From positions 160,001-224,000 of the forward strand of contig CAWAOD010000013.1 in assembly GCA_963783575.1 (NCBI GenBank): 64,000 nt of DNA, read 5' to 3'. Within the stretch, counting starts at the first letter, position 1, and each line of letters starts with the position of its first letter. Under the pieces are notes generated by a model. It did not search any database, was not told where the DNA came from, and worked only from the letters and a program-made list of their open reading frames with translations. The DNA comes from an uncultured Spirochaetota bacterium (GTDB lineage Bacteria; Spirochaetota; Brevinematia; Brevinematales; JAOACQ01). This document shows, in pieces, positions 42,012-59,700 of this stretch. The translations under genes were made by a program, and so were the position numbers.

Positions 42012-42367
42012 AATTTCTTGTTTTTTTAACCTCCGAAGTTTAAACCCAATTTCACAATTTCACCGAATCTTAACAATCTTGAGGCTCGACTTGTTTTAAT
42101 TTCTTGCAGCCTTCTGCTCTTTGCTTTTAGTGACCGGGAAAAATGTAAAATTGCGCTTATTGTGTAAGGAAAGATTATAAGGAATATTGTGGAATATATC
42201 AAGAGGTTGGGGGAATAATTTATTTCCGGTTAAGCATGAAATTTATAACTGCCTCTGAATAAAGCCGGTTTCTTGCAATGGATGCAATAGCCTATAAATT
42301 TTTGCCGGGAGTTTTCCAAAAAGCGATTATCAAAACCTTCGCCTTAAAATTGCCCCAAAAAATATAT

Positions 42368-42397
42368 TTGACAGACCGTTAAAGGCCATGCTATAAT
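42368..42397 (+). promoter_or_regulatory. Consensus sigma70 promoter pointing into the cassette array (Pc-like)
   Basis: TTGACA-18bp-TATAAT with TG extension. Confidence 0.7.
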
Positions 42398-42406
42398 CTT
42401 ACCAAT

Positions 42407-42456
42407 GGGGAAATGTGCCGTATAGCGTTATGCTTGCCGCGAATTTCCCCTTTTTT
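42407..42456 (+). terminator. Hairpin + T-tract directly after the promoter
   Basis: GGGGAAAT...ATTTCCCC followed by TTTTTT. Confidence 0.55.
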
Positions 42457-42596
42457 ATTTATTTAGTTTACTATGTCTTATTAAGGGTGGATTTGGAGAT
42501 TGATTTGGATTTTTTTATTTAAAATTGGTAGTTTAAGAAGTTTGGATATATTGAGTTGGAAGAATTTTTAAAAATAAGTAAAATTAAATAATAGGG

Positions 42597-43442
42597 GTGA
42601 AAATAATGAGTGTAATGAAAGGTATAATAGCTTCTACAAATGTGGATTCAGTAGGTGATCGATTTACAAAAGAAGCTATTCTTAGTATGATTGAACAATC
42701 GAAAAATAATTATATAAGAGTAACTTATGAACATGACCCTAGAAAAATACCAATTGGAAGAATTATTGATACTCAATTAATAGAATTTGATGATGGAAAT
42801 TTTGGAATAGAAAATACTTTTGAAATTTTTGATGGAAATAATCCAGTATGTGATGATGAAAAAAAGAGTTAGTTATAGAAAATTTTGAAGATTCTGAAAA
42901 TCTAACTATCTATTATGATGATAGTTATGTAAATAATAATTATTTAAATAAAATTGAAGAATTAAATAATTCTATACAAAAGCATAGCAATTTAAAATAT
43001 TTTGGTAAAAAGTCAATAGAACCATTAAGTATATTAACAATTGCAGGTGTCTATATTGCTGGTAAAATTTTTGAAGGATTTCTAAATAAAATTGGAGAAA
43101 AAATATATTTAAGTTTATCAGATAAATTATATGAAGTTTTAAGGTTACAAAAAAATAAAGATGAAAAAGTATTAGAATTTTCTCTTAATATCAAAAAAGA
43201 TGATAATTTATATCGTATTAATATATTTTTTAACTAATCCAACAAAAGATGATATTAATATTGTTATTAAAAAAGGTTTCAAAAAACTTGATGAACAAAT
43301 AAACAATTATTTAAATCCCTCAATAAAAGAAATTGATATAAATTATAAAAATTGCAAATTTGAAATTACTTATATGCTTAATGGTAAAGCTAAAATATTA
43401 ATTCCAAAAGATGAATTTAAAATTATAGATATAATTGTATAA
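42597..43442 (+). pseudogene. Cassette gene: prohead-protease-like N-terminus + hydrophobic segment, two homopolymer frameshifts
   Basis: Frames join at A7 (42859-42865) and T6 (43226-43231); middle frame 42866-43234 is open; resembles 43621-44424. Confidence 0.7.
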
Positions 43443-43458
43443 TAATTAAAAAAACACC

Positions 43459-43592
43459 GTACAACGGCCTTGTAGAAAAAGTTAATTTTCAGACAATAAT
43501 CTCCTCTTTTCAAACAACCTTTGATGGTTTTTATCCTTAAGCAGGATGAGATGTGTGGCGGGTTGAAGGAGTTCGGGTATTTCGAGGTGTAT
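43459..43592 (+). repeat. attC-like repeat, type A
   Basis: GTACAAC...GGTGTAT with conserved core tgtagaaaaagttaatt...caaaca...ccttaagc.ggatgaga. Confidence 0.85.
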
Positions 43593-43620
43593 GAAATGAT
43601 GCTGTTCGCTAGAGGTAAAC

Positions 43621-44424
43621 ATGAAATTTATTAAAGATCAAATTATTTCTGGTACAGAAATTGATTCACAAGGTGAAAAGTTAACTATAAAAGATTTAGA
43701 TTATTTAGCTGAAATTAGTAATCCCAGAGTAAATCTAGGTCAAAGGCATGACTTATCATCAGACAATATAGGCTATATTGAAAATTTTAGAGTTGTAAAA
43801 AGTGAGAAATATTCAGATGAATATTTTTTAATTGGTGATGTATATTTTAATACAGATTCAATTGATGAAGCTCTCAATGGTTTTAGCTTTTCGTTAACAA
43901 AAGTTATTTATGGTGATGCTTCAAAAGAAGCATTATCTGTGTTTATACCATATCCTTATTATAATAAGGATGATTTATTAAAAGATATATATAATAATGA
44001 TTCAAATATAATAGTTGGGAAGTGGATTAAAAAAGAAGCCGATCCTTTATCAATAATACTAATATTAGTTAATTTCCTTTTAAAACCTGTATGGGATTCT
44101 GTCTGGAAAGATAAAATTTATCCAATTCTTATTAAAAATATTAATCAAATAAATAAACTAATGAATAGTACTAATAAATATAATATTATCCAAATTTGTT
44201 TTAATAAATATAAATTCTTAGTTTATTTTATTCCTGACAATGATAATAGTCCAGAGTGTTATCTTGGAGTTAAATTATCTGATGCTATTAACAGAGCTTT
44301 TGAATTCTCAAAAAAATATGATAATATTTCTAAAATTAAATTTTTGTTTGATACACCAACAAAACAATATATACCTTTTATGATTGAACTAAATAATGGA
44401 GAATTTATTAATATACTAAGATGA
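43621..44424 (+). CDS. Cassette gene: prohead-protease-like domain + hydrophobic segment, function unknown
   Basis: SGTEIDSQGE, HD....IG and GFSFS motifs; DPLSIILILVNFLL hydrophobic stretch. Confidence 0.7.
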   Translation: MKFIKDQIISGTEIDSQGEKLTIKDLDYLAEISNPRVNLGQRHDLSSDNIGYIENFRVVKSEKYSDEYFLIGDVYFNTDSIDEALNGFSFSLTKVIYGDASKEALSVFIPYPYYNKDDLLKDIYNNDSNIIVGKWIKKEADPLSIILILVNFLLKPVWDSVWKDKIYPILIKNINQINKLMNSTNKYNIIQICFNKYKFLVYFIPDNDNSPECYLGVKLSDAINRAFEFSKKYDNISKIKFLFDTPTKQYIPFMIELNNGEFINILR

Positions 44425-44437
44425 ACAGCATCACTTC

Positions 44438-44593
44438 GTACAACGGCTATGTAGAAAAAGCTTATTTCAGAAAATAACCTTCCCTTCTCAAACAACCTGT
44501 AATGGTTTTTGCCCTTAAGCGGGATGAGAGATGCGGGGGAGTTTGAAGGAGATGGCTGGAGGGCTTGGGTAGTTCGGATATTTCGAGTAATAC
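44438..44593 (+). repeat. attC-like repeat, type A
   Basis: GTACAAC...GTAATAC, long imperfect hairpin with CCCTTAAGCGGG apex. Confidence 0.85.
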
Positions 44594-44655
44594 GAAATGC
44601 TGAATTATTTGAAGATAAATACACACAAATCTTTACGGATTATATGGAGATAAAT

Positions 44656-45462
44656 ATGATTGAAAAAGATAAGTATGAAAATTTATTAAATAATTTTGAT
44701 TTAGGGGCATCAACTGCAGAAAATGATCCACTTTTGGAGGCTGCCAAAATTGAGACTCAAGAATTCTATGATTTATATTGGAAAGATCGTATTGATATAA
44801 TTAAGGGAATAAAAGGTTCAGGAAAGACTGCATTATATAGACTATTATTTTTTATAAAAGATTATTCCATAGAAAAGAAAAATTTATTTTGTATCTTTGG
44901 TATTGAAGCATCAGGTGATCCGGTATTTCGTTTATTTTATCAAGAATTCGAGAATTATACTGAGATTGAGTTCGAAAATTTTTGGAATATTTATTTTATC
45001 CTTTTAATAAATAATTTGATTGAAGAAGATAGTTCATTAAAAGATAAGCTAAAACTTGATAAAGATATTATAAAAAAAATAATAAATTCAATGGGAATAA
45101 AAATAACAAAAAATCAATATTCTTTGAAGGATTCAATAAGTGGAATACAAATATTATTTAATTCAAAATTAAAATTTGGGGTAAAAACAGATATAGATGA
45201 AAATCTATTACCAAAATCTGTTACTCCATTAATTGAAATTGAACCTCATATCCTTGAAACCATTAAAATAAAACCTATTTATATTACTGAATTTAAAGAA
45301 AAAATTACTAAAATATTAAGTAAACATGATATTAAGATATGGATTATGCTTGATCGTTTAGATGAAGTTTTTCCACATCGCAGTCATATTGAGAAAAGCG
45401 GTTTAAAAAGTCAATCAGATTATCACTTCATTATATCTTACTTTATCAAACATGCTTACTAA
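44656..45462 (+). pseudogene. P-loop ATPase cassette (Sll1717/FunZ-like), truncated after Walker B
   Basis: DLG...AEND, GIKGSGKT Walker A, WIMLDRLDE Walker B; runs into unrelated sequence at ~45410; GGAG RBS before ATG 44656. Confidence 0.65.
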
Positions 45463-46183
45463 TTCACAAATAATTCAAGTCTGGACAAATAGTTATACTT
45501 CAAATGTTATAACCAATGTACTTACAAATATTGCTGGAACTGGAACAGCCCCAATTTGGCAGACAGTATTTTTTGATGATTTTAATAGAGCGGATGGAAA
45601 TTTGGGTGTAAATTATATCCTATCTAATTCAAACTCAACAACATCACTTTTAAGTAATATGGTCTTTGTTGAAAATACAAATTATGTTTATGGTTCAGGT
45701 AACAATTCTTATTATATTATTTTATATTCTCAGCCAATTACAAATAATAGAATTCGCTTATCATTTAAACTTAAAACTTTATCATTCGATGGGAATGGAT
45801 TTAATATCGGTTTGGGAAATGGTAATAGAGGACAATATGATATATTAGGAATGACTATTATTGGTTCTGGATTTACACCATTTGGATTAAATCCAGGTTT
45901 ATTTTTAGGTGGAACAGGTAATTATACAAATATGGCTTTTCAAACATTGCCTAATACTTTTTATAAGCTAATATTAGAAATTAATAGAAGTTCATCTAAT
46001 CTGATTGGTGAAATAAAAGATGATTCTGATAATAGTATAGTTTTGGGTTCTGTAACATTAACTAATCAAACTTTATTAAGTATATTAACAAATAATTTAG
46101 TAACATTAAGTTTTATGTACCCTGGTAATGTTACAAATTATCAGATTTATTATGACGATTTCAAGATCGAAAAGTTTGAATAA
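45407..46183 (+). pseudogene. Probably 5'-truncated Thr/Asn-rich exported protein
   Basis: Frame open from 45407, no signal peptide or RBS; FFDDF...YYDDFKI beta-sandwich-like ends. Confidence 0.5.
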
Positions 46184-46283
46184 ATTAGTATATTTTCTTT
46201 AATTTGTTGTCTAATTTAGAATAAACTAAAGCCATTTGATGGACGTTTCAAACGGCGTCCTGCCGTTTTTATACCGACAATGC

Positions 46284-47628
46284 GGTAGTGTCAAGGATTT
46301 TGCGCACATTTTATAACCCTCAATCTGACAATGAATTATGAAACTCTTTCATTCGTTTGAATATCATTCATCAATTCCATATTCAAATACTTCTTCTCAC
46401 TCCAGACCGAACCCGCAATATGCCTGAGCCTGGCAGCTACCAACATCAATGCCGATTCTCCATCAGGAAAAGCTCCTACAACCCTTGTTCTTCTACGGAT
46501 TTCTTTCATTATCCTTTCAAGGCCATTATTGGTCCTGATCCTTTTCCAATGTTCAACCGGAAAACTATAATACGAAAGTGTTTCTTCAGTTCCGGTTTCT
46601 ACCAATTCGGCAGCTTTAGGCAATTTCATTTCCTTTAACTTTGAAACCACCATACTTTTCTTTCTCCTGGCTTCTTCAATGTCCTCCTGCGCATGGATCG
46701 CTTTTAGCATCGTCGCTACTTCTTTCACTTTGCCCTGCGGTACTAAACTAAAAACATTTCGGTAAAAGTGTACTACACATCTCTGCCATTTTGATTTCGG
46801 ATAGAAGTCAGGTATGATCTCAACCAAGCCTAATACTTTGTCCGATACAATCAGCTCTATGTTTTTCAGACCTCGCTCCTTCAGGTATTTCAGAAAATTA
46901 TTCCAGCTGTCTTTATCTTCCTTTGCTCCTTCTGCTACACCAATTATCTCCCTGAAGCCTTCTTCATTAACTGCTATTGCTACTAATACCGAGACATTTT
47001 TAACCTCACCTCCCCACGTCCGCTTGAGCCATATCCCATCCATATATACATACGCGTAATGACCTTTTATTGGTTCTTTCCGCCATTTATCTATTTCATC
47101 ATATATCTTTTTATTTAGGTTACTAATGGTGCCGGGTGATACCTTTGTTCCCCATAATGCTTCTGTGATATCTTCAACCCTCCTTACAGACACGCCCGCC
47201 AGATACATCTCAATTAATGCTTCTTCCACCGATATCTCACGCCTTTTATATCGCTCAATAATCGCTGTTTCAAATGTCACTTTCCGTAGCTTGGGAATTT
47301 TCAATTTGACTTCACCGGCTCTTGTTAATAGTTTTCTCTCGTAATGTCCGGCTCTGTTACCTTTCCGCTGATCGTTTCTCTCATATTTCTGTGCATTACA
47401 TAGACTATCTGCTTCAGCGTCCAGCATCGCGTTTAATGTTTCTTCAACTGTTTGTCGTACAAATTTTCCCAGATGATCTTTGACTTTTTCCTCGTTAATT
47501 TCGATAATATTATCAGTCATATTAAGTCCTCCTTCTGACTTTTTGGTTTTTGGTCGAACCTTAATATCGTCAGATTGAGGACTTTTTTTTATCCCTTTTT
47601 AAAATGTGCGCAAATATTATACGTTATC
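46284..47628 (-). mobile_element. IS256-family insertion sequence
   Basis: Imperfect terminal IRs sharing TTTGCGCACATTTT; encloses the transposase; no target duplication seen. Confidence 0.9.
46336..47520 (-). CDS. IS256-family (Mutator) transposase
   Basis: EMYLAGVSVRRV, YMDG, VSD..LGL, QRC.VHF.RN, RTNN.LER. Confidence 0.95.
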   Translation of the reverse strand: MTDNIIEINEEKVKDHLGKFVRQTVEETLNAMLDAEADSLCNAQKYERNDQRKGNRAGHYERKLLTRAGEVKLKIPKLRKVTFETAIIERYKRREISVEEALIEMYLAGVSVRRVEDITEALWGTKVSPGTISNLNKKIYDEIDKWRKEPIKGHYAYVYMDGIWLKRTWGGEVKNVSVLVAIAVNEEGFREIIGVAEGAKEDKDSWNNFLKYLKERGLKNIELIVSDKVLGLVEIIPDFYPKSKWQRCVVHFYRNVFSLVPQGKVKEVATMLKAIHAQEDIEEARRKKSMVVSKLKEMKLPKAAELVETGTEETLSYYSFPVEHWKRIRTNNGLERIMKEIRRRTRVVGAFPDGESALMLVAARLRHIAGSVWSEKKYLNMELMNDIQTNERVS

Positions 47629-47812
47629 AAGAGGCTACGGCTGCGGTGCTCGGGTTCGCCCGTTAAAGTATTATTTTTAGAGGTAATTTTCAGAATGACA
47701 CATTATTTGGTGTATAGAGAAAATATTATTAACGGGCTCACCAAACCCGCAAACCTAAGCGCGTGGAGCTGGCGCTAAGGTTTGCGGGCTTCGTATAGCC
47801 ACACCGTTGTAC
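47629..47812 (+). repeat. attC-like site, type B (left end lost at the IS256 junction)
   Basis: Nested hairpins CCCGTTAA..TTAACGGG and CCCGCAAACC..GGTTTGCGGG, ending in GTTGTAC. Confidence 0.7.
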
Positions 47813-47902
47813 GCAATTTTACACGATTTTATTTTTAAAGTTATAAAGATATTTTTTTATAAAAGTTTATCTTTTAATAATTATTTTGTTAGGAGAAACG
47901 AT

Positions 47903-48292
47903 ATGTGGTTATTTATCATTGTAACAATTATTTCATGGATTATTTTAACCTTATTAAGAGTTGGCCTCCATCTTACACTTGCCAATGGATTTAAAATTAA
48001 ACTTGCTAATGGTCATTGGATTTATCTTATTCCACAAATAATTTTGATAATTATTTATTCTTACATAATAGTTATTTTATTCCATAATTTTGATGCAATA
48101 TATTTTTTTATTATGGGTTTAATTTGGCTTGTGCTTGTATTGTGCTTTGAATTTATTGGAACATTAATTATCCAAAAAAAGAGTTTAGAAGAATTATTTG
48201 AAGGTTGGAAGATATGGAAAGGACATATATGGACTTTGGTATTGCTATCACATTTAATTATTCCTTTTATTATTAAAGAGTTTCTTAAATGA
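47903..48292 (+). CDS. Cassette gene: small multi-TM membrane protein
   Basis: AGGAG RBS, about four hydrophobic segments, bounded by complementary cassette ends. Confidence 0.75.
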   Translation: MWLFIIVTIISWIILTLLRVGLHLTLANGFKIKLANGHWIYLIPQIILIIIYSYIIVILFHNFDAIYFFIMGLIWLVLVLCFEFIGTLIIQKKSLEELFEGWKIWKGHIWTLVLLSHLIIPFIIKEFLK

Positions 48293-48326
48293 TGTTTTGC
48301 TCTATGCATGATTTGTGCAAAACTGC

Positions 48327-48484
48327 GTACAACGGTCTTGTAGAAAAAGTTAATTTCAGGTAATAATCTTCCCTTTCCAAACAGTATGTTTGTTTTTACC
48401 CTTAGGCGGGAGGAGAGACGGGGTTTGGCTTAAATGAGAAAGCGGGGGGCGAGATTTGCGAAGATTGTATATCCCGAGTTATAT
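48327..48484 (+). repeat. attC-like repeat, type A
   Basis: GTACAAC...GTTATAT with the conserved core. Confidence 0.85.
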
Positions 48485-48575
48485 GCAATGCCGGATCAAA
48501 GTCGTAAATTAATATAGCCCCGATATCCGTACCGGTGTATAATGTGCCCTGTTTTATTTCAGATAGGAGAAATTT

Positions 48576-49478
48576 ATGGGAAATGATATTACAAATGGTA
48601 GATTGAAAAATAAAAATATTACCATTTTTCTGCTCTCAATAATAGCCATTTTTCTTATATTAACCATTTCGATAGCTGGATTTGTTTTAGATGATGGTGG
48701 TAAATCGTATTATTTTTCTTCTTTAAGAGGGGAAAAAGTTGAAATATATGGCGGTCATGGTCTCTATCAATATGATAGTGTTCTTAAAGCAGTAGAGTTT
48801 AAAGGATACAACTGGATTAATATAATTATTGGTTTACCATTATTTGTGTTGGGATTATATTTATTCCATCAAGGCAACTTTAAAGGACAATTAATTCTTA
48901 CAGGTCTTTTTACCCATTATGCCTATAACTATTTAATTGGTGTGATGGGTAATGCTTTTAATATTATGTTTTTAATTTGGACAGCATTATTTTCATTATG
49001 CATATTTGGATTATTTTTTATTTTAAAAAACATTGATTTTAAAACATTACACAATAAATTAGAAAAGAGTTTCCCCAGAAAAAGTCTTTCTATATATATA
49101 ATAATATTTGGTTTATTATTTTATATTCTATATTTACCAAATATTTTAAATTCTTACATAAATGGTAATCCACCAACATCATTAGAGATTTATACAACTC
49201 TTGAACTGGCTTCTTTAGAAATGGGAATAATGGCGCCACTAAGCATTATTGGCGGAATACTTTTATTTAAAAAAATTGCTGCTGGTTATATAATTGTATT
49301 AACTTTAATTTTTACTTCTATTATGACCTTTTTATCTTTAAGTGTTTCTGCTTTATTTCTTTATTTCTTTTATCATAAAGGGGCTTTTAATTTTCAATTT
49401 ATTTTATTATCGATAATTTCAATTGCTTTTATCTCAATAAGTTATAAAAATATCAAGGGAGAAGATATATCCTTATAA
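48576..49478 (+). CDS. Cassette gene: polytopic membrane protein
   Basis: AGGAG RBS, multiple TM segments, S.RGEKVEIYG.GLYQYDS loop. Confidence 0.75.
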   Translation: MGNDITNGRLKNKNITIFLLSIIAIFLILTISIAGFVLDDGGKSYYFSSLRGEKVEIYGGHGLYQYDSVLKAVEFKGYNWINIIIGLPLFVLGLYLFHQGNFKGQLILTGLFTHYAYNYLIGVMGNAFNIMFLIWTALFSLCIFGLFFILKNIDFKTLHNKLEKSFPRKSLSIYIIIFGLLFYILYLPNILNSYINGNPPTSLEIYTTLELASLEMGIMAPLSIIGGILLFKKIAAGYIIVLTLIFTSIMTFLSLSVSALFLYFFYHKGAFNFQFILLSIISIAFISISYKNIKGEDISL

Positions 49479-49548
49479 AATTGTAAATAAAGGAATTAAG
49501 AATCGCCATCCGCGGCTTAGATATTATACTGAAAGTTCGATCCGGCCA

Positions 49549-49694
49549 TGACAACGGCCCTGTAGAAAAAGTCTAATTTCAGGTAATAATCCTCCATTTC
49601 CAAACAGTCTGTTTGGTTTTTGTACTTAAGCGGGATGAGAGACGCGGGAGTGGTTTTGGGGAGTTCTGATATTTTGTATTGTTTGCCATTGTAT
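49549..49694 (+). repeat. attC-like repeat, type A
   Basis: TGACAAC...ATTGTAT with the conserved core. Confidence 0.85.
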
Positions 49695-49780
49695 GGCGGC
49701 TTTTAATAATTTCAGTTTTTATGATTTAAAATTGTAAAATTATTATTGATTTAATTACAGCTCATATTTATAATTAAGCT

Positions 49781-49990
49781 ATGGAGGGATTCATGGATAC
49801 AATTACAAGAGAAAAATCAGATTTAATGGAAATAATAAAAGATTTTCCTGAAAACAAACTTATTGAGTTATTGGATTTTGCTCAATTTTTAAAATTAAAG
49901 AAACAGGTTGAAAACCAAGTAAATCTAACATCATTTAATGATAAAATTATTAAAGAAGATAAAAATCTATTAACTAGATTAGCTAAATGA
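49781..49990 (+). CDS. Probable antitoxin
   Basis: Small ORF coupled to doc (ATGA overlap), ends LLTRLAK; own promoter TTGATT-17-TATAAT at 49746-49774. Confidence 0.75.
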   Translation: MEGFMDTITREKSDLMEIIKDFPENKLIELLDFAQFLKLKKQVENQVNLTSFNDKIIKEDKNLLTRLAK

Positions 49991-50364
49991 TTAAGATTGA
50001 AGAAGTTATCGGTATACAAGAAAAACTGATCGAAAGCTTTGGTGGAATTAAAGGTTTAAGGGATTTGGGTTTACTTGATTCTGCTTTAAATCGTCCTTTC
50101 ATAACATATGAGCAAAATGATCTTTATGATTCTATTTTTGAAAAAGCCAGTATTTTGATTCTTGGAATAATACAAAATCATCCATTCATTGATGGGAATA
50201 AAAGAATTGGTTATTTTGTATTTAGGGCTTATTTATTATCGCAAGGATATGATATAAAAGCGAATGAAGATGAAAAATATGATTTTGTTATAAAAATTGC
50301 TAAAGGGGATTTATCTTATTCGGATATATTAAAATGGTTAAATAAACATAGTATTGAAGCATAA
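49987..50364 (+). CDS. doc: Doc/Fic-family toxin
   Basis: GLRD.GLL.SA..RP and HPFIDGNKRIG Fic motif. Confidence 0.92.
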   Translation: MIKIEEVIGIQEKLIESFGGIKGLRDLGLLDSALNRPFITYEQNDLYDSIFEKASILILGIIQNHPFIDGNKRIGYFVFRAYLLSQGYDIKANEDEKYDFVIKIAKGDLSYSDILKWLNKHSIEA

Positions 50365-50371
50365 ATGTGCC

Positions 50372-50468
50372 ATACAACGGCATATAACGGCGGCTATAAT
50401 GCCTCATGCTTGCTCGCTTAGTCCCAGGCATGTCAGGGCTTCACATGTTTTGGTTTTTGCCCTCAAGC
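50372..50468 (+). repeat. Left half of an attC-like repeat interrupted by IS21
   Basis: ATACAAC start, ends ttggtttttgccctcaagc; continues at 53007. Confidence 0.75.
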
Positions 50469-50585
50469 TGGAAATGTCAAGAGTTTTTCCCATATCTGCG
50501 CTCGGGTAATTTCCCACCCCTTCCACAAGAGTTTTCCCCATACCTTCCACGTGAGTATTTCCCATAGTGAGGAGGCAAAGAATGG

Positions 50586-51335
50586 TTACTCAACCTCCTT
50601 ATTCAAATTTTGTATTCTGTAAGATTCTCCGCTCAAGTTATAAATATTTGAATGATGTAAAAGCCTATCCAGAAGAGCGGTTGTCATAATCGGGTCTCCC
50701 ATCATTTCAGCCCAATCCTGAAATCCCTTATTCGATGTTATCACAATTGATGTCTTTTCATACAATTCACTTACAAGACTAAAGAATAGATTTGCCTCCT
50801 TCTTTTCGATAGGTGTGTAACCTATCTCATCAATGATTAATAAGTGTGACTTCATCATCCGGTTCAGCCTGAAAGCAGAGCTTCTCTGGATGTCCGCCGT
50901 TTTCAGAAACTTAATGAGAGTAGTCATCCTTTCAAAGCAGACAATATATCCCTTTTCAACTGCCCGGATTCCGATACTAATTGCCAGATGCGTTTTCCCC
51001 AGCCCCGGAGACCCAAAGAACAACAGGTTATGATGATTATCAATCCAGCAGAAATCCAATAGCTGTGAAACATCCATTTTAGATATTCCATTCACTTTTT
51101 CAAAATTAAAACCTTCCACATCTTTGCGGACCGGGAAGTGTGCTCCTGCCATATTCCGCTGAAAACGTTTTTCCACTCTATAATTCAATTCCAGAGAAAG
51201 CAGCCTCTGCAGAAAACTCAGATAAGACTCTTTTGCCTTTTCAGCCTCACCAATTTCCTCATCAATCCGTTTTATCATACCCTTCAACCCGAGAGTTGTA
51301 AGCGCAGTTATGATTTGTTCTCTTATCTTCAACAT
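50586..51335 (-). CDS. istB: IS21 helper ATPase IstB
   Basis: GSPGLGKTHLA, LLIIDEIGY, ITSN, LLDRLLHH. Confidence 0.95.
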   Translation of the reverse strand: MLKIREQIITALTTLGLKGMIKRIDEEIGEAEKAKESYLSFLQRLLSLELNYRVEKRFQRNMAGAHFPVRKDVEGFNFEKVNGISKMDVSQLLDFCWIDNHHNLLFFGSPGLGKTHLAISIGIRAVEKGYIVCFERMTTLIKFLKTADIQRSSAFRLNRMMKSHLLIIDEIGYTPIEKKEANLFFSLVSELYEKTSIVITSNKGFQDWAEMMGDPIMTTALLDRLLHHSNIYNLSGESYRIQNLNKEVE

Positions 51336-52882
51336 TGCCGGCCCCCGATGGAGTCACAGAAACTCTGGTATTTCCCGATGTCTGATTTAGCTACTTCAAG
51401 ATAGTGTTCAGGATTCACTGAAGGCCTGACAATCTTTTCAACATTCAAGGGTATTTCTGCCTTTTCTGTTATAAAACAGTTCAGGTAATTATCCCACAAA
51501 TCCTTCATGGAATAACTATCACTCTCCAGGCAGTTTGAGATCGCTTGTGTAAGCTTCCCGGTATCAATTATCTTGTCCCTGAAGTATTTTCTTCCGGAAA
51601 GACATTGGTCCCTTACATAACGATTGAACTTCCTGAAATTACATTCAAGAAAATCCTTCCAGCCGGGAATATCAAAGTACCCGCTTACTTCTTCTTTCAA
51701 TAACTGCACAGTCTTTCCCATTTCCCGGATCATTGACCTGTTGGTTACAATCTGCCCCGGAATCACTGAAAGCCGGTATTCGGCGATTTGCTCTCCCGTT
51801 ATCCTGTCAAAGACAAAAAGCCGACTGCCCGTCTTGTAGATGTCCACCGAACCGTTCCTGTATTTTTCGGGAATATCATACTGGCTTGCATCAACTGCGA
51901 TCCGGCATTTATCGCTTACACTGCGCTCTTCCCTTGCTCCTATCCTGTCTTTACGGAATATCGAATTCCTGACAGATTGGAGATATGGTCTTTCCGTTTC
52001 AATCTCTATCAGTGGTATTTTCATTGTAGCCTGGGATATTCTCCCGTTGGCTTTTCTTTCCAGCCATTTCATCAGGCTTTCTTCCGCTTCCATTAAACTG
52101 TTGAACTCCCGGACTGAGAAGAAACCGTGCTTGATGAATTTGACTACGTTTTCAATCTTTCCCTTACTTTCCGGGTCAGCAGGTCGGCACACATACATTT
52201 TAAGACCCATTTCCCCGATGAAATACTGAAAGTCTTTCGTGTAGATGATATCGCCTGAGTTCTCACTCGCAACCATCGTGCAGTCCTGATCGATGACAAG
52301 TTCATGCGGTATCCCGCCCATATATGCGAAACAGTCCAACAGATGATTGATAAGGTCTTCTGTCCGGAATGGCCTCTCCTGGAGGGCCGCATACTTAAAA
52401 CGACTGGCGGATAACACCGCGGCAAATATGTAATACCTTCTGCCATATCTGTCGGTATATTGACCGAAATCAAGCTGGAGCTGCTTTCCATATGGCATGT
52501 CAGGCACTTTTGTGTAATACCGTCGCTTTTCATTCAAGGTAAGCTGCCCGCTTTCAATCAGGTAATGTACGAAATTCCTCATCGTATTTTCATTCGCCGG
52601 TAGTTTGCCTTTTACCTCCAATAAATAGTCATACAAAGCAGACATATTCAGCCGGATGTAATCATTCTTTTCATATACTTTCAATATGTCTGTTTTTATT
52701 CCTTCGAATTCTTTTTCACGGAAAGAGAATTCCATCAGGCTTTTCTGGTATTCGGAATCGTTCATAGCCCAATATTTTCGGACTGTCTTAATATCTATTG
52801 ACAGTTCCCGGGATACACCATTTTTACTTTTCCCCAAAAGTTTCAGTTTTTTTATGTCCTGATACATAATATTTTTCACCAT
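51329..52882 (-). CDS. istA: IS21 transposase IstA
   Basis: N-terminal HTH, QLDFG, GGIP.ELVID, P.SKGKIE. Confidence 0.93.
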   Translation of the reverse strand: MVKNIMYQDIKKLKLLGKSKNGVSRELSIDIKTVRKYWAMNDSEYQKSLMEFSFREKEFEGIKTDILKVYEKNDYIRLNMSALYDYLLEVKGKLPANENTMRNFVHYLIESGQLTLNEKRRYYTKVPDMPYGKQLQLDFGQYTDRYGRRYYIFAAVLSASRFKYAALQERPFRTEDLINHLLDCFAYMGGIPHELVIDQDCTMVASENSGDIIYTKDFQYFIGEMGLKMYVCRPADPESKGKIENVVKFIKHGFFSVREFNSLMEAEESLMKWLERKANGRISQATMKIPLIEIETERPYLQSVRNSIFRKDRIGAREERSVSDKCRIAVDASQYDIPEKYRNGSVDIYKTGSRLFVFDRITGEQIAEYRLSVIPGQIVTNRSMIREMGKTVQLLKEEVSGYFDIPGWKDFLECNFRKFNRYVRDQCLSGRKYFRDKIIDTGKLTQAISNCLESDSYSMKDLWDNYLNCFITEKAEIPLNVEKIVRPSVNPEHYLEVAKSDIGKYQSFCDSIGGRQC

Positions 52883-53006
52883 TCCTGCCTTCCTTTAATG
52901 AATTTTCATTAAAGGTAATCTTCAAGCCTCTCTATGGGAAATCTGTTTGTGACAGGTATGGGAATTTCATTTATTGCTACCCTGGTAAATTAGTTTATCA
53001 TTTCCA

Positions 53007-53087
53007 CAAGCGGGATGAGAGACGCGGGGTGGGTTGAAGGAGATGGAGGGGAGTGGTTTTGGGGAGTTCTGATATTTTGAGGTGTAT
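53007..53087 (+). repeat. Right half of the attC-like repeat interrupted by IS21
   Basis: caagcgggatgagagacgcgggg...gaGGTGTAT matches type A right arms. Confidence 0.85.
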
Positions 53088-53112
53088 AAAATAACCTTGC
53101 AAAGGAGAATCT

Positions 53113-53724
53113 ATGAGTACAAATAAAATTCAAACAGTTGGATTGAAACCTGAAGGAATCAAAGGACGAATTGCTGGTATAATAATGAATTTTATACATA
53201 ATAAACAATATAAAAATATTATCAATAAGTACATAATTGATATAATTGACTCAAAAAATCAGGCATCAATACTTGATATTGGATGTGGAGGAGGAAAATT
53301 AATAAATATTCTTTATACAATGTTACAAAATTCAAAAATCTATGGAATTGATCATTCAATTGATATGGTTAATCTTTCAAAAAAAATAAATAAGAAAGGA
53401 ATTGTAGATGGAGCAGTTGAAATTATACAAGGTGATGTTAATAAGCTACCATTCTCTGATAAATTTTTTAACATTATAACTGCTTTTGACACTATAAATT
53501 TTTGGAAAGATTTAGATATTTCTTTAATGGAAATTAAACGAGTTTTGAAACAAAATGGTATTCTTTTTATAGTTAATGGCTACCCGAAAGCAGGAACAAA
53601 ATGGTATGATTTTGTAAAATTTAAAAGTGATGATGAATATAGAGATTTTTTGACTGAGAATGGTTTTAAAGAAATAAATATAGTTATTGAAAATAATACT
53701 ATTATAATACAGGCATTGAAGTGA
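53113..53724 (+). CDS. Cassette gene: class I SAM-dependent methyltransferase
   Basis: ILDIGCGGG, GIDHS, LPF.D..F, RVLK.NG. Confidence 0.9.
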   Translation: MSTNKIQTVGLKPEGIKGRIAGIIMNFIHNKQYKNIINKYIIDIIDSKNQASILDIGCGGGKLINILYTMLQNSKIYGIDHSIDMVNLSKKINKKGIVDGAVEIIQGDVNKLPFSDKFFNIITAFDTINFWKDLDISLMEIKRVLKQNGILFIVNGYPKAGTKWYDFVKFKSDDEYRDFLTENGFKEINIVIENNTIIIQALK

Positions 53725-53744
53725 AACATTTGCAAGGTTACTTC

Positions 53745-54033
53745 GTACAACGGCATTATATGAAAAGTTAATTTCAAGTAATAATCCTCCCTTTCCAAAC
53801 AGTCCTGTTTGGTTTTTGCCCTCAAGCGGGAGGAGAGACGCGGGGCGTGTTGAAGGAGAAGGCGGGATGGTCAGTGTCAAGTAACCCACAGGGGCCGAAG
53901 GCACCGCACGACCCCAGGCAATGTTAGGGCTTCGACAGTTTTGGTTTTTTTCCTGATTTGGCATGTTTCCCACACTTTCGCTTTCCACGACAAATTTAGA
54001 TGTTTTACGAAGGTCATATATAACGAGTTGGAC
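53745..54033 (+). repeat. attC-like repeat, type A, with an extended composite right part
   Basis: GTACAAC + type A core to ~53870, then a segment similar to 50423-50458, ending GTTGGAC. Confidence 0.7.
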
Positions 54034-54074
54034 GAAATGTCCTGCCGGCTTTTAATTTATAAATAAGAAACAGC

Positions 54075-54120
54075 TTGACATATAACATTATTAATAGTAC
54101 TATATATAATACTATTAATA
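54075..54120 (+). promoter_or_regulatory. TA promoter and operator
   Basis: TTGACA-17-TACTAT overlapped by a perfect inverted repeat TATTAATAGTA-N10-TACTATTAATA. Confidence 0.7.
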
Positions 54121-54133
54121 AGGAGATTATTTT

Positions 54134-54391
54134 ATGGTTCATACTATTACAGCGAATGATCTTAAAACAAAAGGGGTCAATGCCATCGATGAAGCAACAC
54201 ATGAAGGAAGCGAAGCATTTATATCAATCCGAGGTAAAAATAAATTTGTTGTTTTATCTCTGGATAAATACAACTACTTAAGAGAATGCGAATTGGAAGC
54301 CGCATTATTTGAGGCAAGAAAAGATATAAAAAATGACAAATTCTTTATAGAATCCGTTGATGATCATATCAAGAGAATTAAAAATGCCTAA
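54134..54391 (+). CDS. Phd/YefM-family antitoxin
   Basis: TITANDLK.KG...I..RGK.K.VV pattern; overlaps the toxin start. Confidence 0.85.
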   Translation: MVHTITANDLKTKGVNAIDEATHEGSEAFISIRGKNKFVVLSLDKYNYLRECELEAALFEARKDIKNDKFFIESVDDHIKRIKNA

Positions 54392-54656
54392 GATTTTTTA
54401 TACTGAAAGTTATAATAAAAGAGCTTCAAAATTTATAAAAAAATATCCTGAATTAATTGGACAATATGAAAAAACATTAAACCTAATGGAAATTGATCCA
54501 AATCATCCTTCATTAAGATTACATAAACTAAAAGGAAAATTGTCTGAATTATATTCAATTTCTATAAATATTTCTTATCGAATCACAATTGATTTTATAA
54601 TAGAGAACGGCATCATTATTCCGATTGATGTTGGATCTCACGACGATGTGTATTAA
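54384..54656 (+). CDS. RelE-superfamily toxin (YafQ/plasmid-stabilisation-like)
   Basis: P.HPSLRLHKLKG, SI.ISYRI, DVGSHDDVY; ATG 54384. Confidence 0.88.
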   Translation: MPKIFYTESYNKRASKFIKKYPELIGQYEKTLNLMEIDPNHPSLRLHKLKGKLSELYSISINISYRITIDFIIENGIIIPIDVGSHDDVY

Positions 54657-54850
54657 TTAAATAGGCAATCCGCAGCGCCTGGCAGGCTTCTAACGTTGCA
54701 ATACTGTGTAGCCCCAGGCGATAGTTGAAAAGCGGAAAATATTTTCGGTGTTAACAATTAACTTTTTGGTATAGTAATAAAAAGATAATTTATACAAATT
54801 TTTGCAAATATTATTCATGCGGCTTAGCTGGCATTTCTTTATTTTGTCTT

Positions 54851-55744
54851 TTATATATAATAAATCTCACGATTCTTTCTGGCCGGAACGAAATGATATT
54901 CGACCGCCGGATAACCGATGATAAGGGCATTGTAAACAGCCATTTTCTCAGGTATCCTTACTATCTTATTGATCGCCGGGTAAAGTCCTGAAAACATTGC
55001 ACTGATAGTGCCTGAGTAGCACGTGCCGAGTCCTATCGAAGGAGCCATTAAAGCAACCGTCTGAGCGGCAAGGTCAGCATCGGTCTTAGCCATAAATTCA
55101 TGCTGTGGCCCGAGGAAGAGGAGAAGACAAGGAGCATGAAATAGCACCGGATCCATTCCCTTCTCAAAGGCCTCGGCTTGTTTATCGTATACCCGCCCTA
55201 ACTCAGAGAACATGAAATAAGTTTCCTTGCCTAGGACTTTCTTCATTATTAATGAAAAAGGGAAACTATTGATCTGCTTCGACATTTTTTTCGACATTTT
55301 CATCCCTATTTCTGTGAGTTTTTTTAAAATCTCAGGTGACCATATGACAATAACGTCAATATATTGTTTATTATGACCTGTCGGCGAATACTTAACCGCC
55401 TCGACCAGTTTATAAATGTCCTCCTGTTTTACAGGCATTTCTTTATAGGATCTGACTGAACGCCGGGCCATTATCAGATTTAATGCTGCTTCTGAATCGG
55501 GGATAGAGGAAGCCCTTCCTGTTAAGGCTATGTTGCCTACCGTTATTGCTCCCTCTGGACAGGAGGCAGCGCAGTTGTTGCACTGGAAGCAAAGACGCCT
55601 AACTATCTCATTTTCTAGATTGTCAAGCCCTGCCGCCCGGGTAATAGGACAGACCAGCAGGCATTTATTACAATTAATGCACTTCCCACTGTCGATAGAT
55701 AATTTAATAACATTCCCGCGTGGCATTTTTTCATTCTTTTTCAT
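54851..55744 (-). CDS. Nitroreductase with 4Fe-4S ferredoxin domain
   Basis: Two CxxCxxCxxxCP motifs, RRSVRSY, SPTGHN, GLGTC, IGYP; AGGAGG before ATG 55744. Confidence 0.88.
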   Translation of the reverse strand: MKKNEKMPRGNVIKLSIDSGKCINCNKCLLVCPITRAAGLDNLENEIVRRLCFQCNNCAASCPEGAITVGNIALTGRASSIPDSEAALNLIMARRSVRSYKEMPVKQEDIYKLVEAVKYSPTGHNKQYIDVIVIWSPEILKKLTEIGMKMSKKMSKQINSFPFSLIMKKVLGKETYFMFSELGRVYDKQAEAFEKGMDPVLFHAPCLLLFLGPQHEFMAKTDADLAAQTVALMAPSIGLGTCYSGTISAMFSGLYPAINKIVRIPEKMAVYNALIIGYPAVEYHFVPARKNREIYYI

Positions 55745-56151
55745 TATCAAACCTCCTATCTGAATATTTAAAAATCCCAATTTTTGTTATATATACTTAA
55801 AAATATAGGTTTAAAAATTAAGCTTTTTCGTAAGTATGCGATTTATTTATCGTTTATTTTTTTCCGGCTGATATCGAATTGTTTTTATCAAAGGCTATTG
55901 ATAAGGCTGTTCTTCATTAATATCACCTTTATAACTTTTAATAAATGCAACATCTCCAACATCAACAGCCTCAAATAAAGTTTTCATATTGATTATTTCC
56001 CTTTCACTATTTTTTAATCCTGAAAAATAATAAGATATTAATTTTAGAATAAAGTATTGAAAAAATCATGAAAAGTGATTTATTATTTTATTAACCAATG
56101 GAAAATTCCAATTTATGAAAATGATAATGCTGATACATTAAGTCAAAGAGT

Positions 56152-56232
56152 CCTTAAGCGGGAGTAGAGAAGCGGGGCGGGTTTGAAGGAGAAGGCGGAG
56201 GGTGGGTTTGGGTAGCTTGTTTATTTCGAAAT
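56152..56232 (+). repeat. Right-half remnant of a type A attC-like repeat
   Basis: ccttaagcgggag...gtttgaaggagaagg...tttgggtag...tatttcga; left arm missing. Confidence 0.75.
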
Positions 56233-56370: not shown

Positions 56371-56692
56371 GAATTGAACCAGAAGCCTTTTATAAAAGGA
56401 GTATTTATCATATTGTCAATTATTACCTCTAAATTAATTGCTGCGGGATGCTCGTCGAATAAACAAAAAAGCTTCTGATCCCTGCCGGGAGATTAATAAA
56501 AAGCGGAAATACTGTTAATATTTCACCGGATACAAAATCATTTACACCTGAAATATAGGAGGATCTTCGGAAAAACCATTCTTGCTTTCTTGGGAACCAA
56601 CATCAGGATTCCGGTAACAAGTTGGGTCAGAATCATCAACCCATTATAGCAACTGGTATCCAAATTACCTTTATTCCATCCATTAAACAAAA

Positions 56693-56741
56693 ACGGGCGA
56701 ACCCGAGGGCCGCAGCCCAAAGCGTATATCCGCGGTTGTAC
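56693..56741 (-). repeat. Left-arm remnant of a type B attC-like site on the minus strand
   Basis: Minus strand GTACAAC followed by ggctgcggccctcgggttcgcccgtt, nearly identical to 47639-47664 (+). Confidence 0.65.
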
Positions 56742-56802
56742 GAAAGGCTTGGCAATTGATTAATGATAACTTTATATTTACTTTTTTTATTTTTTGTGGA
56801 TT

Positions 56803-57354: not shown

Positions 57355-57399
57355 CTTTTTATAAATTAGAAAAATACAGCCACGAATGGCGGTGTTAAT

Positions 57400-58434: not shown

Positions 58435-58517
58435 AAAATATCCTTTCCATTTATTTTTGTATCATCAAGCCCGCCAAGGAAGGCGGGCAAGAAAACAAAG
58501 TCCAAGCAGTTTATGGC

Positions 58518-59545: not shown

Positions 59546-59700
59546 ATAGTGCAACGATTGCGCAAATGACCTGCCCCCTCGGTCGGAATTTCCCTTATAG
59601 TAAAAAGGAAAATTGTTTTGGTTTATTTATATATATAGAACATCCGAAAATAATTAATGTGAAATTATCATCGCTGCCATTGAAGGAAAAGGAGGTTTTC

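Follow-up and report, generated by a model that had tools for sequence, protein, structure and literature searches.

Which recombination system, if any, assembled the run of unrelated genes separated by related repeats in this locus, and can the run still be moved? The locus lies in a stretch of 64,000 nucleotides (the window) from an uncultured Spirochaetota bacterium, and an earlier note on the sequence had described it as a cassette array with lineage-specific hairpin sites. Our reading, to which we assign a probability of roughly three in four, is that at least eight cassettes with hairpin-type AAC...GTT sites form a recombinase-less array in the window, likely built by an Xer-like recombinase with a HARP-like domain and without the IntI insertion, and now likely immobile. 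If this is true, an integron-like system is driven by a recombinase without the segment thought to be essential for integrons.

Structure of the array in the window

The repeat positions in the earlier note (43459, 44438, 48327, 49549, 53007, 53745, and 56152) were borne out by searching the window with the two parts of the repeat. The left part was found in five copies (43454, 44433, 48322, 49545, and 53740) with 66%–88% identity to the reference copy across 64 nt, and the purine-rich right part was found at 44511, 49622, 53002, 53818, and 56150, with one internal echo at 53025. The window copies align mutually at E values of 1e-23 to 1e-18 (blastn), and their likeness is therefore not due to chance. 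The copy that had been described as split is real; its left part runs to 50468 and its right part starts at 53007, with an IS21-family element in between, and it keeps the ACAAC box and is without the tgtagaaaaag segment. As proposed, every full copy sits after a gene end when checked against the ORFs of the window, and the cassette stretches are AT-rich (GC 0.25–0.31, versus about 0.37–0.40 in the flanks).

The repeat is a chimera (B-type site). Its AAC-ended left box leads into an IS1182-like segment, and after the purine-rich arm comes a GTT-type right box that is partly degenerate; the right core reads GGT, GTA, or ATT in four of six sites. The main site of the genome is an ordinary (type A) hairpin site of about 240–255 bp with clean AAC/GTT cores. 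The conserved attC-like repeat of the earlier note is a real hairpin-type site but not one ancestral site, as an IS1182-like element contributed one of its ends as the left inner arm, and CCCTTAAGCGGG, taken at that time for the hairpin apex, is instead the start of the right arm, directly after the IS-derived segment.

The features of the array are listed in Table 1. Both toxin-antitoxin pairs that had been proposed are real; as for the promoters attributed to them, promoter-like sites are present 5' of each pair (49746–49774 and 54075–54103, 10/12 matches each), but such sites were common in the search (120 found versus 91 expected). Synteny with four same-family relatives ends at 42012–42025, and these relatives are without the array there, so that the content of this place is variable among relatives. 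With its IS insertions, mutated right cores, and orphan attI-like site, the window array looks decayed.

Table 1. Array features in their order along the window. Fractions out of 24 and 13 are matching arm positions.
Feature	Position	Strand	Description
Degenerate purine-rich right-arm remnant	42470–42525	+	Start arm of cassette 1 near 42499
Cassette 1	42499–43465	+	Fragmented ORF (42597–42872, 43200–43442), no family; arm at 42499 versus reverse complement before 43465, 15/24 (distal part 11/13); no detectable paralogy with cassette 2 (sequence comparison, E 0.34)
Site B1	43458–43593	+	Left box CGTACAAC (43458–43465), right box GGTGTATG (from 43586); between them an IS1182-like left-end segment (92% to IS over 51 nt), then purine-rich arm
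Cassette 2	43586–44444	+	ORF 43621–44424, 267 aa, no family; end arms pair 19/24, A/G at position 11
Site B2	44437–44597	+	Right box degenerate, GTA for GTT; 82% to IS over 62 nt
Cassette 3	44590–46295	+	ORFs 44644–45462 (Sll1717-like P-loop ATPase, 60 bits, below cut-off of 75) and 45452–46183; arms unpaired, 11/24
Ordinary (type A) site	46288–47812	+	Left box ending AAG; clean right box GTTGTAC at 47806; interrupted by IS256-family element, about 46296–47622 (transposase 46336–47520, minus strand, 360.5 bits versus cut-off of 150)
Cassette 4	47806–48333	+	Small membrane-like ORF ending at 48292; arms pair 19/24, A/G at position 11; also recovered by blind scans
Site B3	48326–48484	+	Right box GTTATAT at 48478; 90% to IS over 78 nt
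Cassette 5	48478–49556	+	ORF 48576–49478, 300 aa, no family; arms 14/24 ungapped, pairing by eye only with a gap allowed
Site B4	49549–49698	+	Right box ATTGTAT; 92% to IS over 72 nt
Cassette 6, toxin-antitoxin pair	49690–50378	+	49781–49990 DUF2281-like; 49987–50364 Doc family toxin (TIGR01550, 62 bits versus cut-off of 38.65); arms 17/24
Site B5, without IS1182-like segment	50371–53095	+	Split by IS21-family element, 50469–53006 (istB 50586–51335, istA 51329–52882, minus strand; 5-bp duplication CAAGC)
Cassette 7	53081–53751	+	SAM methyltransferase 53113–53724; arms pair 19/24 (distal 12/13), A/G at position 11
Site B6, extra inserted module	53744–54034	+	Right box GTTGGAC at 54027; 85% to IS over 79 nt
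Cassette 8, toxin-antitoxin pair	54027–54697	+	PhdYeFM-like 54134–54391, HigB-like 54357–54656 (weak matches, both below Pfam cut-offs); end box CTTCTAAC
Truncated site, left box only	54690–54760	+	By eye; end of plus-strand array
Orphan right arm of B-type site	56150–56229	+	79% over 78 nt
Left end of ordinary (type A) site	56686–56742	-	By-eye comparison with other type A copies
Minus-strand segment	56735–58524	-	Very AT-rich ORFs 57400–58434 and 56803–57354, no family; arms unpaired
Orphan attI-like site	58525–58625	-	Alignment with sequence just past the recombinase stop codon, both on contig C5 and in relative G011
Promoter-like site into attI-like site	58907–58936	-	12/12 consensus, TG extension; pattern match only

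Cassette signature and folding

Within a cassette, the start arm (GTT and about 20 nt) and the end arm (about 20 nt and AAC) are reverse complements of each other; the start arm is not complementary to the opposite arm of its own site. Arm matches were scored ungapped over 24 positions for site pairs of three arrays. At least 18 positions match in 16 of 27 adjacent site pairs, none of 24 own-site arm pairs reaches 16 matches, and non-adjacent arm pairs have a mean of 12.9 (n = 705). In the distal 13 nt, at least 10 matches were obtained for 14/27 adjacent, 0/24 own-site, and 12/705 other pairs. In the window, three of the eight adjacent pairs reach 19/24 and two more reach 15 and 17, while three are unpaired (11–12 of 24) and five of the eight fall below 18. 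Complementarity across the gene and not within the site places the exchange point at or just before GTT. At position 11, which is 11 nt from the core, the start arm has A and the complemented end arm has G in 26 of 26 cassettes of this genome, giving an A/C pair that is G·T on the bottom strand; transitions at other positions exhibit no bottom-strand preference (12 versus 10). The arm pairing across genes supports the cassette array with lineage-specific hairpin sites that had been put forward.

When rebuilt in circle form, the ordinary sites have mean folding energies of -62.1 kcal/mol (bottom strand) and -57.8 kcal/mol (top strand), and the bottom strand is the more stable one in 10 of 10 sites, with one junction placed 3 nt off; as arranged in the array, they fold at -47.4 kcal/mol. 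In the fold, a small internal loop separates a 21-bp outer stem from a long inner stem, and four different inner-stem sequences all keep their complementarity. B-type sites are weak folders (-14 to -41 kcal/mol) without a top or bottom strand bias. The ordinary sites are long hairpins, whereas the interiors of the window sites fold poorly.

Recombinase

No tyrosine recombinase was found in the window and none of the 29 TIGR02249 matches of the genome lies on its contig (C13), in agreement with the earlier statement that the window is without an integrase. Nor does any match in the genome exceed the TIGR02249 cut-off for a canonical IntI, although the genome is 89.85% complete and another recombinase could therefore be unassembled. 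A canonical integron is not supported, as the only candidate recombinase in the genome, like those at the head of such arrays in relatives, is without the IntI insertion and fails this cut-off. The candidate is Xer-like (C5:457129–458193), is the only copy in the genome, and has two frameshifts with all catalytic residues present. A sister array on contig C5 begins with this gene, directly after which come an attI-like site and no fewer than 12 sites, all on one strand. An intact relative (P0002) passes the XerA-named NCBIfam model NF040815 (237.7 versus 220) and fails TIGR02249 (212 versus 265). About 42 residues are missing compared with VchIntIA (2a3v), the IntI insertion being about 41 residues long, and the spacing from K..R to HxLRH is 58–61 residues in 16 of 16 array-bearing loci, versus 100 in the 10 measurable of 12 canonical IntI loci. 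The HARP-like N-terminal domain (about 80 residues) resembles 4o66 in sequence (E 1.7e-6); its HARP fold match is weak though ranked first (E 0.037, TM 0.38–0.41). By its best structural match, the recombinase is slightly closer to VchIntIA than to XerA, and its best relatives agree with the spirochaete lineage that had been thought probable.

The short recombinase immediately precedes the first site of the array in this genome, in relatives G011 (three loci), G005, and G004, and in 13–16 loci of other phyla; in several phyla, arrays of this kind start with an intact relative. Across 79 loci from many phyla, downstream signature pairs are co-oriented in 30 cases (15 loci) and anti-oriented in two, and upstream pairs are divergent in 10 cases (6 loci) versus one. 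An A/G mismatch peak is present at position 11 (45 of 240 GTT-anchored pairs, versus 4–15 at other positions) and is absent with control anchors. The probable link between recombinase and array is one of co-location and orientation. Beside canonical IntI genes of the same phylum, no signature pair was found in eight stretches, and the arrays there have sites of about 70 nt with 7-bp boxes, without long arms or the position-11 mark.

The array might also be the remnant of an ordinary integron (CALIN), with its canonical IntI lost or among the sequence that was not assembled, and the C5 recombinase as a bystander. The cores do fit the canonical RYYYAAC / GTTRRRY pattern, the genome is incomplete, canonical IntI is present in 29 of the 301 genomes sampled from the phylum, and two spacing values of 100–101 among the 79 loci suggest an IntI near the short recombinase in one or two of them. 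However, no match exceeds the TIGR02249 cut-off here or in any of 11 sampled genomes of the family, and the place of the short recombinase directly before the first site, together with the different sites beside IntI genes, renders this explanation unlikely.

We consider it distinctly improbable that Xer-type recombination between double-stranded short core sites moves the modules, as with dif or pdif modules, with the long hairpins being incidental or serving expression. It is true that the recombinase is without the I2 segment and aligns end to end with archaeal XerA (4a8e, 5hxy), and that P0002 passes the XerA-named model. Yet the arms vary between cassettes and remain complementary over about 20 nt, and the inner stems covary, which points to selection on pairing and not on a fixed protein-binding sequence. 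Moreover, the non-Watson-Crick position 11 is asymmetric between strands, and the sites within one array all point the same way, whereas those of pdif modules alternate.

IS1182-like element and distribution of sites

The left inner arm of the B-type site is the first 75–85 nt or so of an IS1182-like element of the DDE type (216 bits, short of the curated 270), always directly after AAC, and the window copies correspond to IS positions 8–86 at 82%–92% identity. Outside the window, 11 of 11 left ends of the element are preceded by AAC and GGCC(A/T), and nine right ends are each followed by a conserved G(G/T)CTCAAC. A diverged full copy in a sister species has the same starting base, and solo left ends are also present in other parts of this genome and in sister species G001. 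The purine-rich arm is not part of the element and is present in the copy without the IS segment (50371–53095) as well, and the chimeric site follows six or more unrelated genes. The shared left end and the solo left ends would be expected if the repeat were a non-autonomous IS1182-like derivative spread between genes, with no cassette system needed. This is very unlikely, as the right inverted repeat is absent from every window copy, all copies are co-oriented and directly follow an AAC box, pairing links the stretch beyond the right end of each copy to the end of the following gene block, and the purine-rich arm lies outside the element. For a decayed cassette array, the window sites may have arisen as inserted IS copies lost all but the left end, which would have removed the inner pairing; such an origin would need repeated or inherited deletions.

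Most of the 38 places with a site in the genome lie in about eight co-oriented clusters. Intergenic hairpin repeats of the BOX/REP kind, dispersed and without a part in moving genes, would suit the modular and mosaic repeats and the isolated single sites at C9:180203, C9:534392, and C16:32265, but this is scarcely credible given the clustering, the start of the largest cluster directly after the recombinase gene, a pairing across genes and absent within the site that is unexpected for such elements (705 non-adjacent controls argue against a flank artefact), and the recurrence of the layout in other phyla with unrelated site sequences.

Discussion

In the recombinase-built array that we favor, the recombinase would fold out one strand of the site, probably the bottom strand with G·T at position 11, and then exchange strands at G|TT, which would match integron integrases. 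The HARP-like domain may take the structure-reading role of the segment that is missing compared with those integrases. The lost inner pairing and the mutated right cores would have frozen the array in the window, together with the disappearance of the recombinase gene from its place next to the orphan attI-like site.

As in integrons, above all sedentary chromosomal integrons and CALINs (Cury et al. 2016, PMC4889954; Neron et al. 2022, PMC9024848), the cassettes are co-oriented, mostly promoterless, and of obscure function, with toxin-antitoxin cassettes among them. Integrons also share the imperfect hairpin site at each cassette end, AAC/GTT cores with exchange at GTT, an attI-like site by the recombinase gene, and recombinase-less arrays elsewhere in the genome. 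In contrast, the recombinase here is without the IntI insertion, fails TIGR02249, and has an added HARP-like N-terminal domain, while the sites are long and have an outer stem of 15–26 bp with a conserved A/C position and not a 7-bp box. According to Cury et al. 2016 (PMC4889954), recombinases near attC sites without the insertion are not IntI. The 'reverse' integrons of Treponema and other Spirochaetota, as described by Wu et al. 2013 (PMC3607928) and Ghaly et al. 2021 (PMC8352920), are alike in phylum and in a recombinase gene co-oriented with the cassettes. They differ in their canonical IntI (about 500 bits against TIGR02249) and sites of about 70 nt with 7-bp boxes, and the 11 genomes sampled from the family of the window yielded none.

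Archaeal XerA and NF040815 proteins align over the full length of the catalytic and core-binding domains, but the recombinase here has the extra HARP-like domain and is found with cassette arrays instead of a site for chromosome dimer resolution. The pdif modules of Acinetobacter plasmids have 28-bp double-strand sites in alternating orientation and use the host XerC/XerD. They are likewise discrete gene modules bounded by Xer-type recombinase sites, whereas the sites here are long co-oriented hairpins with a dedicated recombinase. Finally, the IS1111-attC group and group IIC-attC introns are mobile elements that home to attC sites. Like them, the IS1182-like element inserts at a fixed position and orientation in a cassette recombination site; unlike them, it lands on the left-core AAC, and its solo left end persists in later sites.

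Repeats of the window and the insertion sequence within them

A repeat search recovered the repeats of the window where the earlier note had placed them, with the left part at 43454, 44433, 48322, 49545 and 53740 (five copies, 66-88% identity over 64 nt) and a purine-rich right part at 44511, 49622, 53002, 53818 and 56150. The copies match each other at E values of 1e-23 to 1e-18, and the one at 50371 is interrupted by an IS21-family element (50469-53006) with the duplication CAAGC. The genes between them are very AT-rich, as had been observed (GC 0.25-0.31); ten have no Pfam family, and two toxin-antitoxin pairs are also present.

A full copy, here termed a B-type site, consists of a left box that ends in AAC and mostly reads CGTACAAC, a segment of ~75-85 nt corresponding to the left end of an insertion sequence of ~1.8 kb, a purine-rich arm (~80 nt), and a right box for which GTT is the expected start; four of the six B-type sites have GGT, GTA or ATT there instead. 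The outer boxes are retained and the inner boxes are not, leaving a fold that comprises the outer stem only. These folds are weak (-14 to -41 kcal/mol) and show no bias between top and bottom strand, and MFE folding of single sites did not yield clean hairpins for the window repeats. The ordinary (type A) sites described below, in contrast, form long hairpins. Against Rfam, the sites matched no family at the gathering threshold or at E ≤1, save for one spurious snoRNA match (E 0.3).

The insertion sequence of the B-type sites codes for a 405-residue DDE transposase with DUF772 and DDE_Tnp_1 domains, which scores 216 bits against the IS1182 family model NF033551 (curated cut-off 270); the element is called IS1182-like here. 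The element has inverted repeats of ~15 nt at both ends and is present in eight full or nearly full copies in the genome. Outside the window, AAC followed by GGCC(A/T) precedes every left end (11 of 11), and a conserved G(G/T)CTCAAC follows the nine right ends; the AAC of the left box is therefore the target of the element, which enters it in a single orientation. Such an insertion would duplicate the 3-bp AAC.

The copies in the window match positions 8-86 of the element (82-92%) and nothing beyond, and its right inverted repeat is absent from every one of them. A sister species (G001) carries a diverged full copy that starts at the same base, which identifies the ~75-85-nt segment as part of the element and not of the site; of the window repeat, only this part was found in the sister species, and no purine-rich arm. 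Conversely, the segment is missing from the copy at 50371-53095, where the boxes and the purine-rich arm are present, which makes this arm a native part of a second type of site. We read the other B-type copies as sites that may have kept just the left end of an inserted element.

Ordinary sites and cassette organization

Each full copy of the IS1182-like element is followed by another conserved sequence, ending in a clean CCGTTGTACG. With this sequence as the query, blastn located 38 places in the genome, mostly in about eight co-oriented clusters (see table).

Locations of ordinary sites on contigs of the host genome, and of two features of the window
Feature	Location	Remark
Ordinary-site cluster	C5:458.7-481.4 kb	13 places
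Ordinary-site cluster	C10:73-85 kb	7 places
Ordinary-site cluster	C9:121-128 kb	4 places
Ordinary-site cluster	C9:383-401 kb	3 places
Ordinary-site cluster	C16:111-119 kb	4 places
Further ordinary sites	C4, C12	
Ordinary site in window	46288-47812	interrupted by IS256-family element
Nitroreductase gene, ordinary composition	54851-55780 (window)	between plus-strand array and minus-strand segment

An ordinary site is composed of AAC, 1 nt, an inner stem of 9-11 bp, a long structured middle, the stem partner, 3 nt and GTT, the boxes being AAC-a-GCGGCTATA ... TATAGCCGC-acc-GTT. The inner stems covary, with four different inner-stem sequences that are all complementary. The layout is that of attC, comprising an AAC inverse core, a GTT core, inner L boxes and an imperfect hairpin. 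The usual attC length is ~57-141 bp, and the ordinary sites are longer at ~240-255 bp.

By eye, the middle of the ordinary sites (window 47695-47778; C5, C10, C4 and C16) contains a Shine-Dalgarno-like AAGGAG/AAAGGG followed by an ORF of ~18-27 codons. Motif and ORF are present in two unrelated site variants, and the 3' half of the ORF overlaps the covarying stem; the ORF may be incidental or may aid translation of the next cassette. One cassette is found on two contigs (C5:473048-474566 and C9:384706-386224) with identical arms and the same insertion sequence after it, which would reflect duplication of the segment or movement of the cassette.

Dispersed hairpin repeats or transposon-like units predict pairing between the two ends of one site, whereas integron-type sites predict that the arm after GTT of site n pairs with the arm before AAC of site n+1, across the gene. 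The arms were compared over 24 positions in the arrays of C5, C10 and the window. Among 27 pairs of adjacent sites, 16 matched at 18/24 or more (mean 17.4), against none of the 24 own-site pairs at 16/24 or more (mean 12.8) and a mean of 12.9/24 for 705 non-adjacent pairs. The distal 13 nt matched at 10 or more positions in 14/27 adjacent, 0/24 own-site and 12/705 non-adjacent pairs. Cassettes are thus discrete units, each of which supplies with its start the missing half of the site at its end. Treating the 255-bp repeat as a BOX-like dispersed repeat is contradicted by this same comparison of adjacent and own-site arms. Blind inverted-repeat scans (any anchor, or genome-wide at 16/22) served solely to list high-scoring pairs, since AT-rich and duplicated sequence dominated the 3004 and 1282 pairs that they returned.

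Within the window, where cassettes 1-8 are the gene units between sites, cassettes 2, 4 and 7 score 19/24, cassette 6 scores 17 and cassette 1 scores 15, and three pairs are unmatched. Bases 4-6 after GTT already track the next cassette, so that the exchange point is located at or just before GTT. All 26 cassettes in this genome have A at position 11 of the start arm and G at the same position of the complemented end arm, which gives an A·C mismatch on the top strand where the bottom strand has a G·T pair; outside this position there is no strand bias (12 vs 10). Ordinary sites rebuilt in their circle form fold at -62.1 kcal/mol as compared with -47.4 kcal/mol for the same sites in the array, and are better in 10/10 cases. 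The bottom strand of the rebuilt sites is likewise favored over the top (-62.1 vs -57.8 kcal/mol, 10/10, with one junction 3 nt off), and their fold runs from an outer stem of 21 bp through a small internal loop into a long inner stem.

The recombinase beside the C5 array

The window had been described as lacking an integrase, and its contig (C13) indeed contains zero tyrosine recombinases. The array on C5 starts ~50 bp past a tyrosine recombinase gene (C5:457129-458193), the sole copy in the genome. As assembled, the gene carries two frameshifts, which may be real or assembly errors, with its catalytic residues intact; reads of one sequencing run contained 12% of the sampled words of this region, and the 162-nt contig built from them (locus L009, 5283-5444) covers neither frameshift position. 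Its 219-residue middle piece matches NF040815 best (183.4 bits), followed by the IntI model (162 bits, in two stretches).

An intact relative of 351 residues, P0002, was found in a genome of the same bacterial family (G011). P0002 and four further family members (P0019, P0047, P0061 and P0024) pass the cut-off of 220 for NF040815, a model named for XerA tyrosine recombinases and integron integrases, at 236-254 bits. P0002 itself scores 237.7 bits against this model and falls short of the integron integrase model TIGR02249 (212 bits in two stretches, cut-off 265). It aligns with VchIntIA (2a3v) in two blocks with ~42 residues missing between them, and with archaeal XerA from end to end. A structural model of P0002 (pLDDT 85.5) has no helix where the IntI insertion would be, and in structural comparison it is closest to 2a3v (E 7.8e-18), with XerA next (~5e-16).

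The N-terminal ~65 residues of P0002 form a beta-beta-alpha-beta-beta-alpha domain. Of 30 family members, 7 match Pfam HARP (PF07443) at E ≤0.01 (best 3.3e-6), a profile of eight N-terminal domains is significant only against 4o66 (SMARCAL1 HARP, E 1.7e-6), and Foldseek ranks 4o66 first with a weak match (E 0.037, TM 0.38-0.41). HARP domains bind branched or junction DNA. HARP is described as an annealing helicase carrying repeats specific to HARP (PMC4035279).

The earlier note had also proposed a search of the genome for an IntI with the I2 insertion; this genome (89.85% complete) has no TIGR02249 match above 265 bits. The proposal of an integron-type array is supported by the cassette-wise pairing of arms, whereas a canonical integrase was not found. 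The sequence right after the recombinase stop codon is conserved between C5 and G011. This attI-like sequence recurs as an orphan on the minus strand of the window (58525-58625), and a promoter-like site at 58936-58907, recognized by consensus pattern only, reads into it.

Adjacent tyrosine recombinase genes (~450 and ~368 residues) occur in at least five other places (C5:3150-4849, 14757-16456 and 30681-32371; C15:6582-8272 and 26294-27999); they resemble recombinase-in-trio elements and bear no relation to the arrays.

Distribution beyond this genome

The short recombinase is patchily distributed, being present in 8 of 41 genomes of relatives (this one included) and 5 of 11 in the family, and co-oriented signature pairs follow it in G011 (three loci) and in two other relatives, G005 and G004. 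Scanning one genome for each species gave 79 recombinase loci in many phyla. The A/G mismatch at position 11 occurs in 45 of 240 GTT-anchored arm pairs at these loci, as compared with 4-15 at other positions, and control anchors have no position-11 peak. The total of GTT-anchored pairs is not enriched in the 79 loci (57 vs 25-97 for other anchors), and the position-11 signature alone separates GTT from the other anchors. Downstream of the recombinase, signature pairs are co-oriented in 30 cases (15 loci) and anti-oriented in 2; upstream, they are divergent in 10 cases (6 loci) and co-oriented in 1.

The spacing from K..R to HxLRH is 58-61 residues in all 16 loci counted as array-bearing, against 100 residues in the canonical IntI genes of the phylum, of which 10 of 12 were measurable. 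Canonical IntI served as a control: 29 of the 301 genomes sampled from the phylum carry it, and none of the 11 from the family does, and eight stretches beside such genes contain ~70-nt sites with 7-bp boxes and zero signature pairs. The recombinase profile matches 94 of the 301 genomes at E ≤1e-70, an upper bound that counts profile matches alone.

Two spacing values of 100-101 residues among the 79 loci suggest a canonical-length IntI near the short recombinase at one or two loci. One family of the phylum with ~4-Mb genomes (f15) has full-length HARP-Xer profile matches in 37 of 45 sampled genomes, far above other families. In an Ignavibacteriota MAG (locus L053), at least 10 sites of ~145 nt lie behind a short recombinase; three sites in a row at 12433-13176, with 321-nt spacing, are gene-free and are either empty cassettes or tandem sites.

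Relation to integrons

Canonical integrons encode an integrase with an IntI-specific domain (the I2 helix near patch III), which was not found here. They also have attI beside the integrase and a promoter into the array; the candidates for these here are a conserved sequence past the stop codon and a promoter-like pattern. Canonical integrases recombine the folded bottom strand, where extrahelical bases guide the strand choice; the indirect signs here are the greater stability of that strand in the 10 rebuilt sites and its G·T pair at position 11. CALINs are defined by the lack of a neighbouring IntI and at least two attC sites under the covariance model of IntegronFinder, and the window fits this definition in its layout.

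The accepted view (Escudero et al. 2016, PMC4792948; 2020, PMC7790495) is that gain of the I2 helix allowed integron integrases to recombine folded single-stranded sites. Recombinases near attC that lack the IntI-specific region are not counted as IntI by Cury et al. (2016, PMC4889954). Treponema is named as the only spirochaete clade with integrons by Wu et al. (2013, PMC3607928), and Ghaly et al. (2022, PMC9668308) report 539 attC sites and just six IntI in 75 archaeal genomes. In the main text of open-access papers and preprints, we found no account of cassette arrays with an insertion-less recombinase at their head.

We hypothesize that arrays headed by HARP-domain, insertion-less Xer-like recombinases represent a second lineage of hairpin-site gene capture that is widespread, independent of I2, and present in bacteria and probably archaea. 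The HARP-like domain would read the folded site, and the conserved position that pairs as G·T/A·C, 11 nt away from the core, would mark the active strand. Many of the 'integrase-less' attC clusters in surveys would belong here, and the IS1182-like element would be specialised on the exchange triplet, with its remnants now part of later sites. Taken jointly, we give these statements a probability of about 0.45, slightly short of even.

Hairpin sites with cassette-wise pairing and a recombinase without the I2 segment bear on the origin of integrons, and the insertion-less recombinases supply orthologues for testing. Such systems may account for part of the many integrase-less arrays, for example in archaea; current integron finders would miss or mislabel sites of this length and recombinases of this kind. 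The window illustrates how an array can be eroded when insertion sequences target its exchange point.

State and cargo of the array in the window

Synteny with four relatives of the same family extends from ~35.4 kb to 42012-42025 and then ends, and none of the four has an array at this break. The array lies on the plus strand (42.5-54.8 kb) and is turned towards a short segment on the minus strand (56.7-58.5 kb), which begins at the orphan attI-like site. Several features suggest that the array no longer moves: it carries two further insertion sequences, its right cores are degenerate, sites lack inner pairing and some arms are unmatched. The arms of the minus-strand segment (56735-58524) and of cassette 3 are unpaired, which may reflect rearrangement.

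A toxin-antitoxin cassette, as claimed in the earlier note, is borne out by a Doc-family toxin at 49987-50364 (TIGR01550, 62 bits vs 38.65) with an overlapping small upstream ORF (49781-49990) as its partner, an arrangement of the type II systems. Cassettes 1 and 2 are not supported as paralogues (E 0.34). In PADLOC, eight of nine cassette proteins match no defence-system model, and the methyltransferase cassette matches the mad2 model (1.6e-14).

A GC-rich region at 59080-59480, upstream of a phosphorylase gene (59539-60513), contains many short complementary runs and has no Rfam match at E ≤1. Just ahead of the array, where synteny ends, 42368-42470 is a candidate small transcript: a 12/12 promoter-like site extended by TG lies at 42368-42397, and downstream of it are a hairpin with a GC stem and a run of T.
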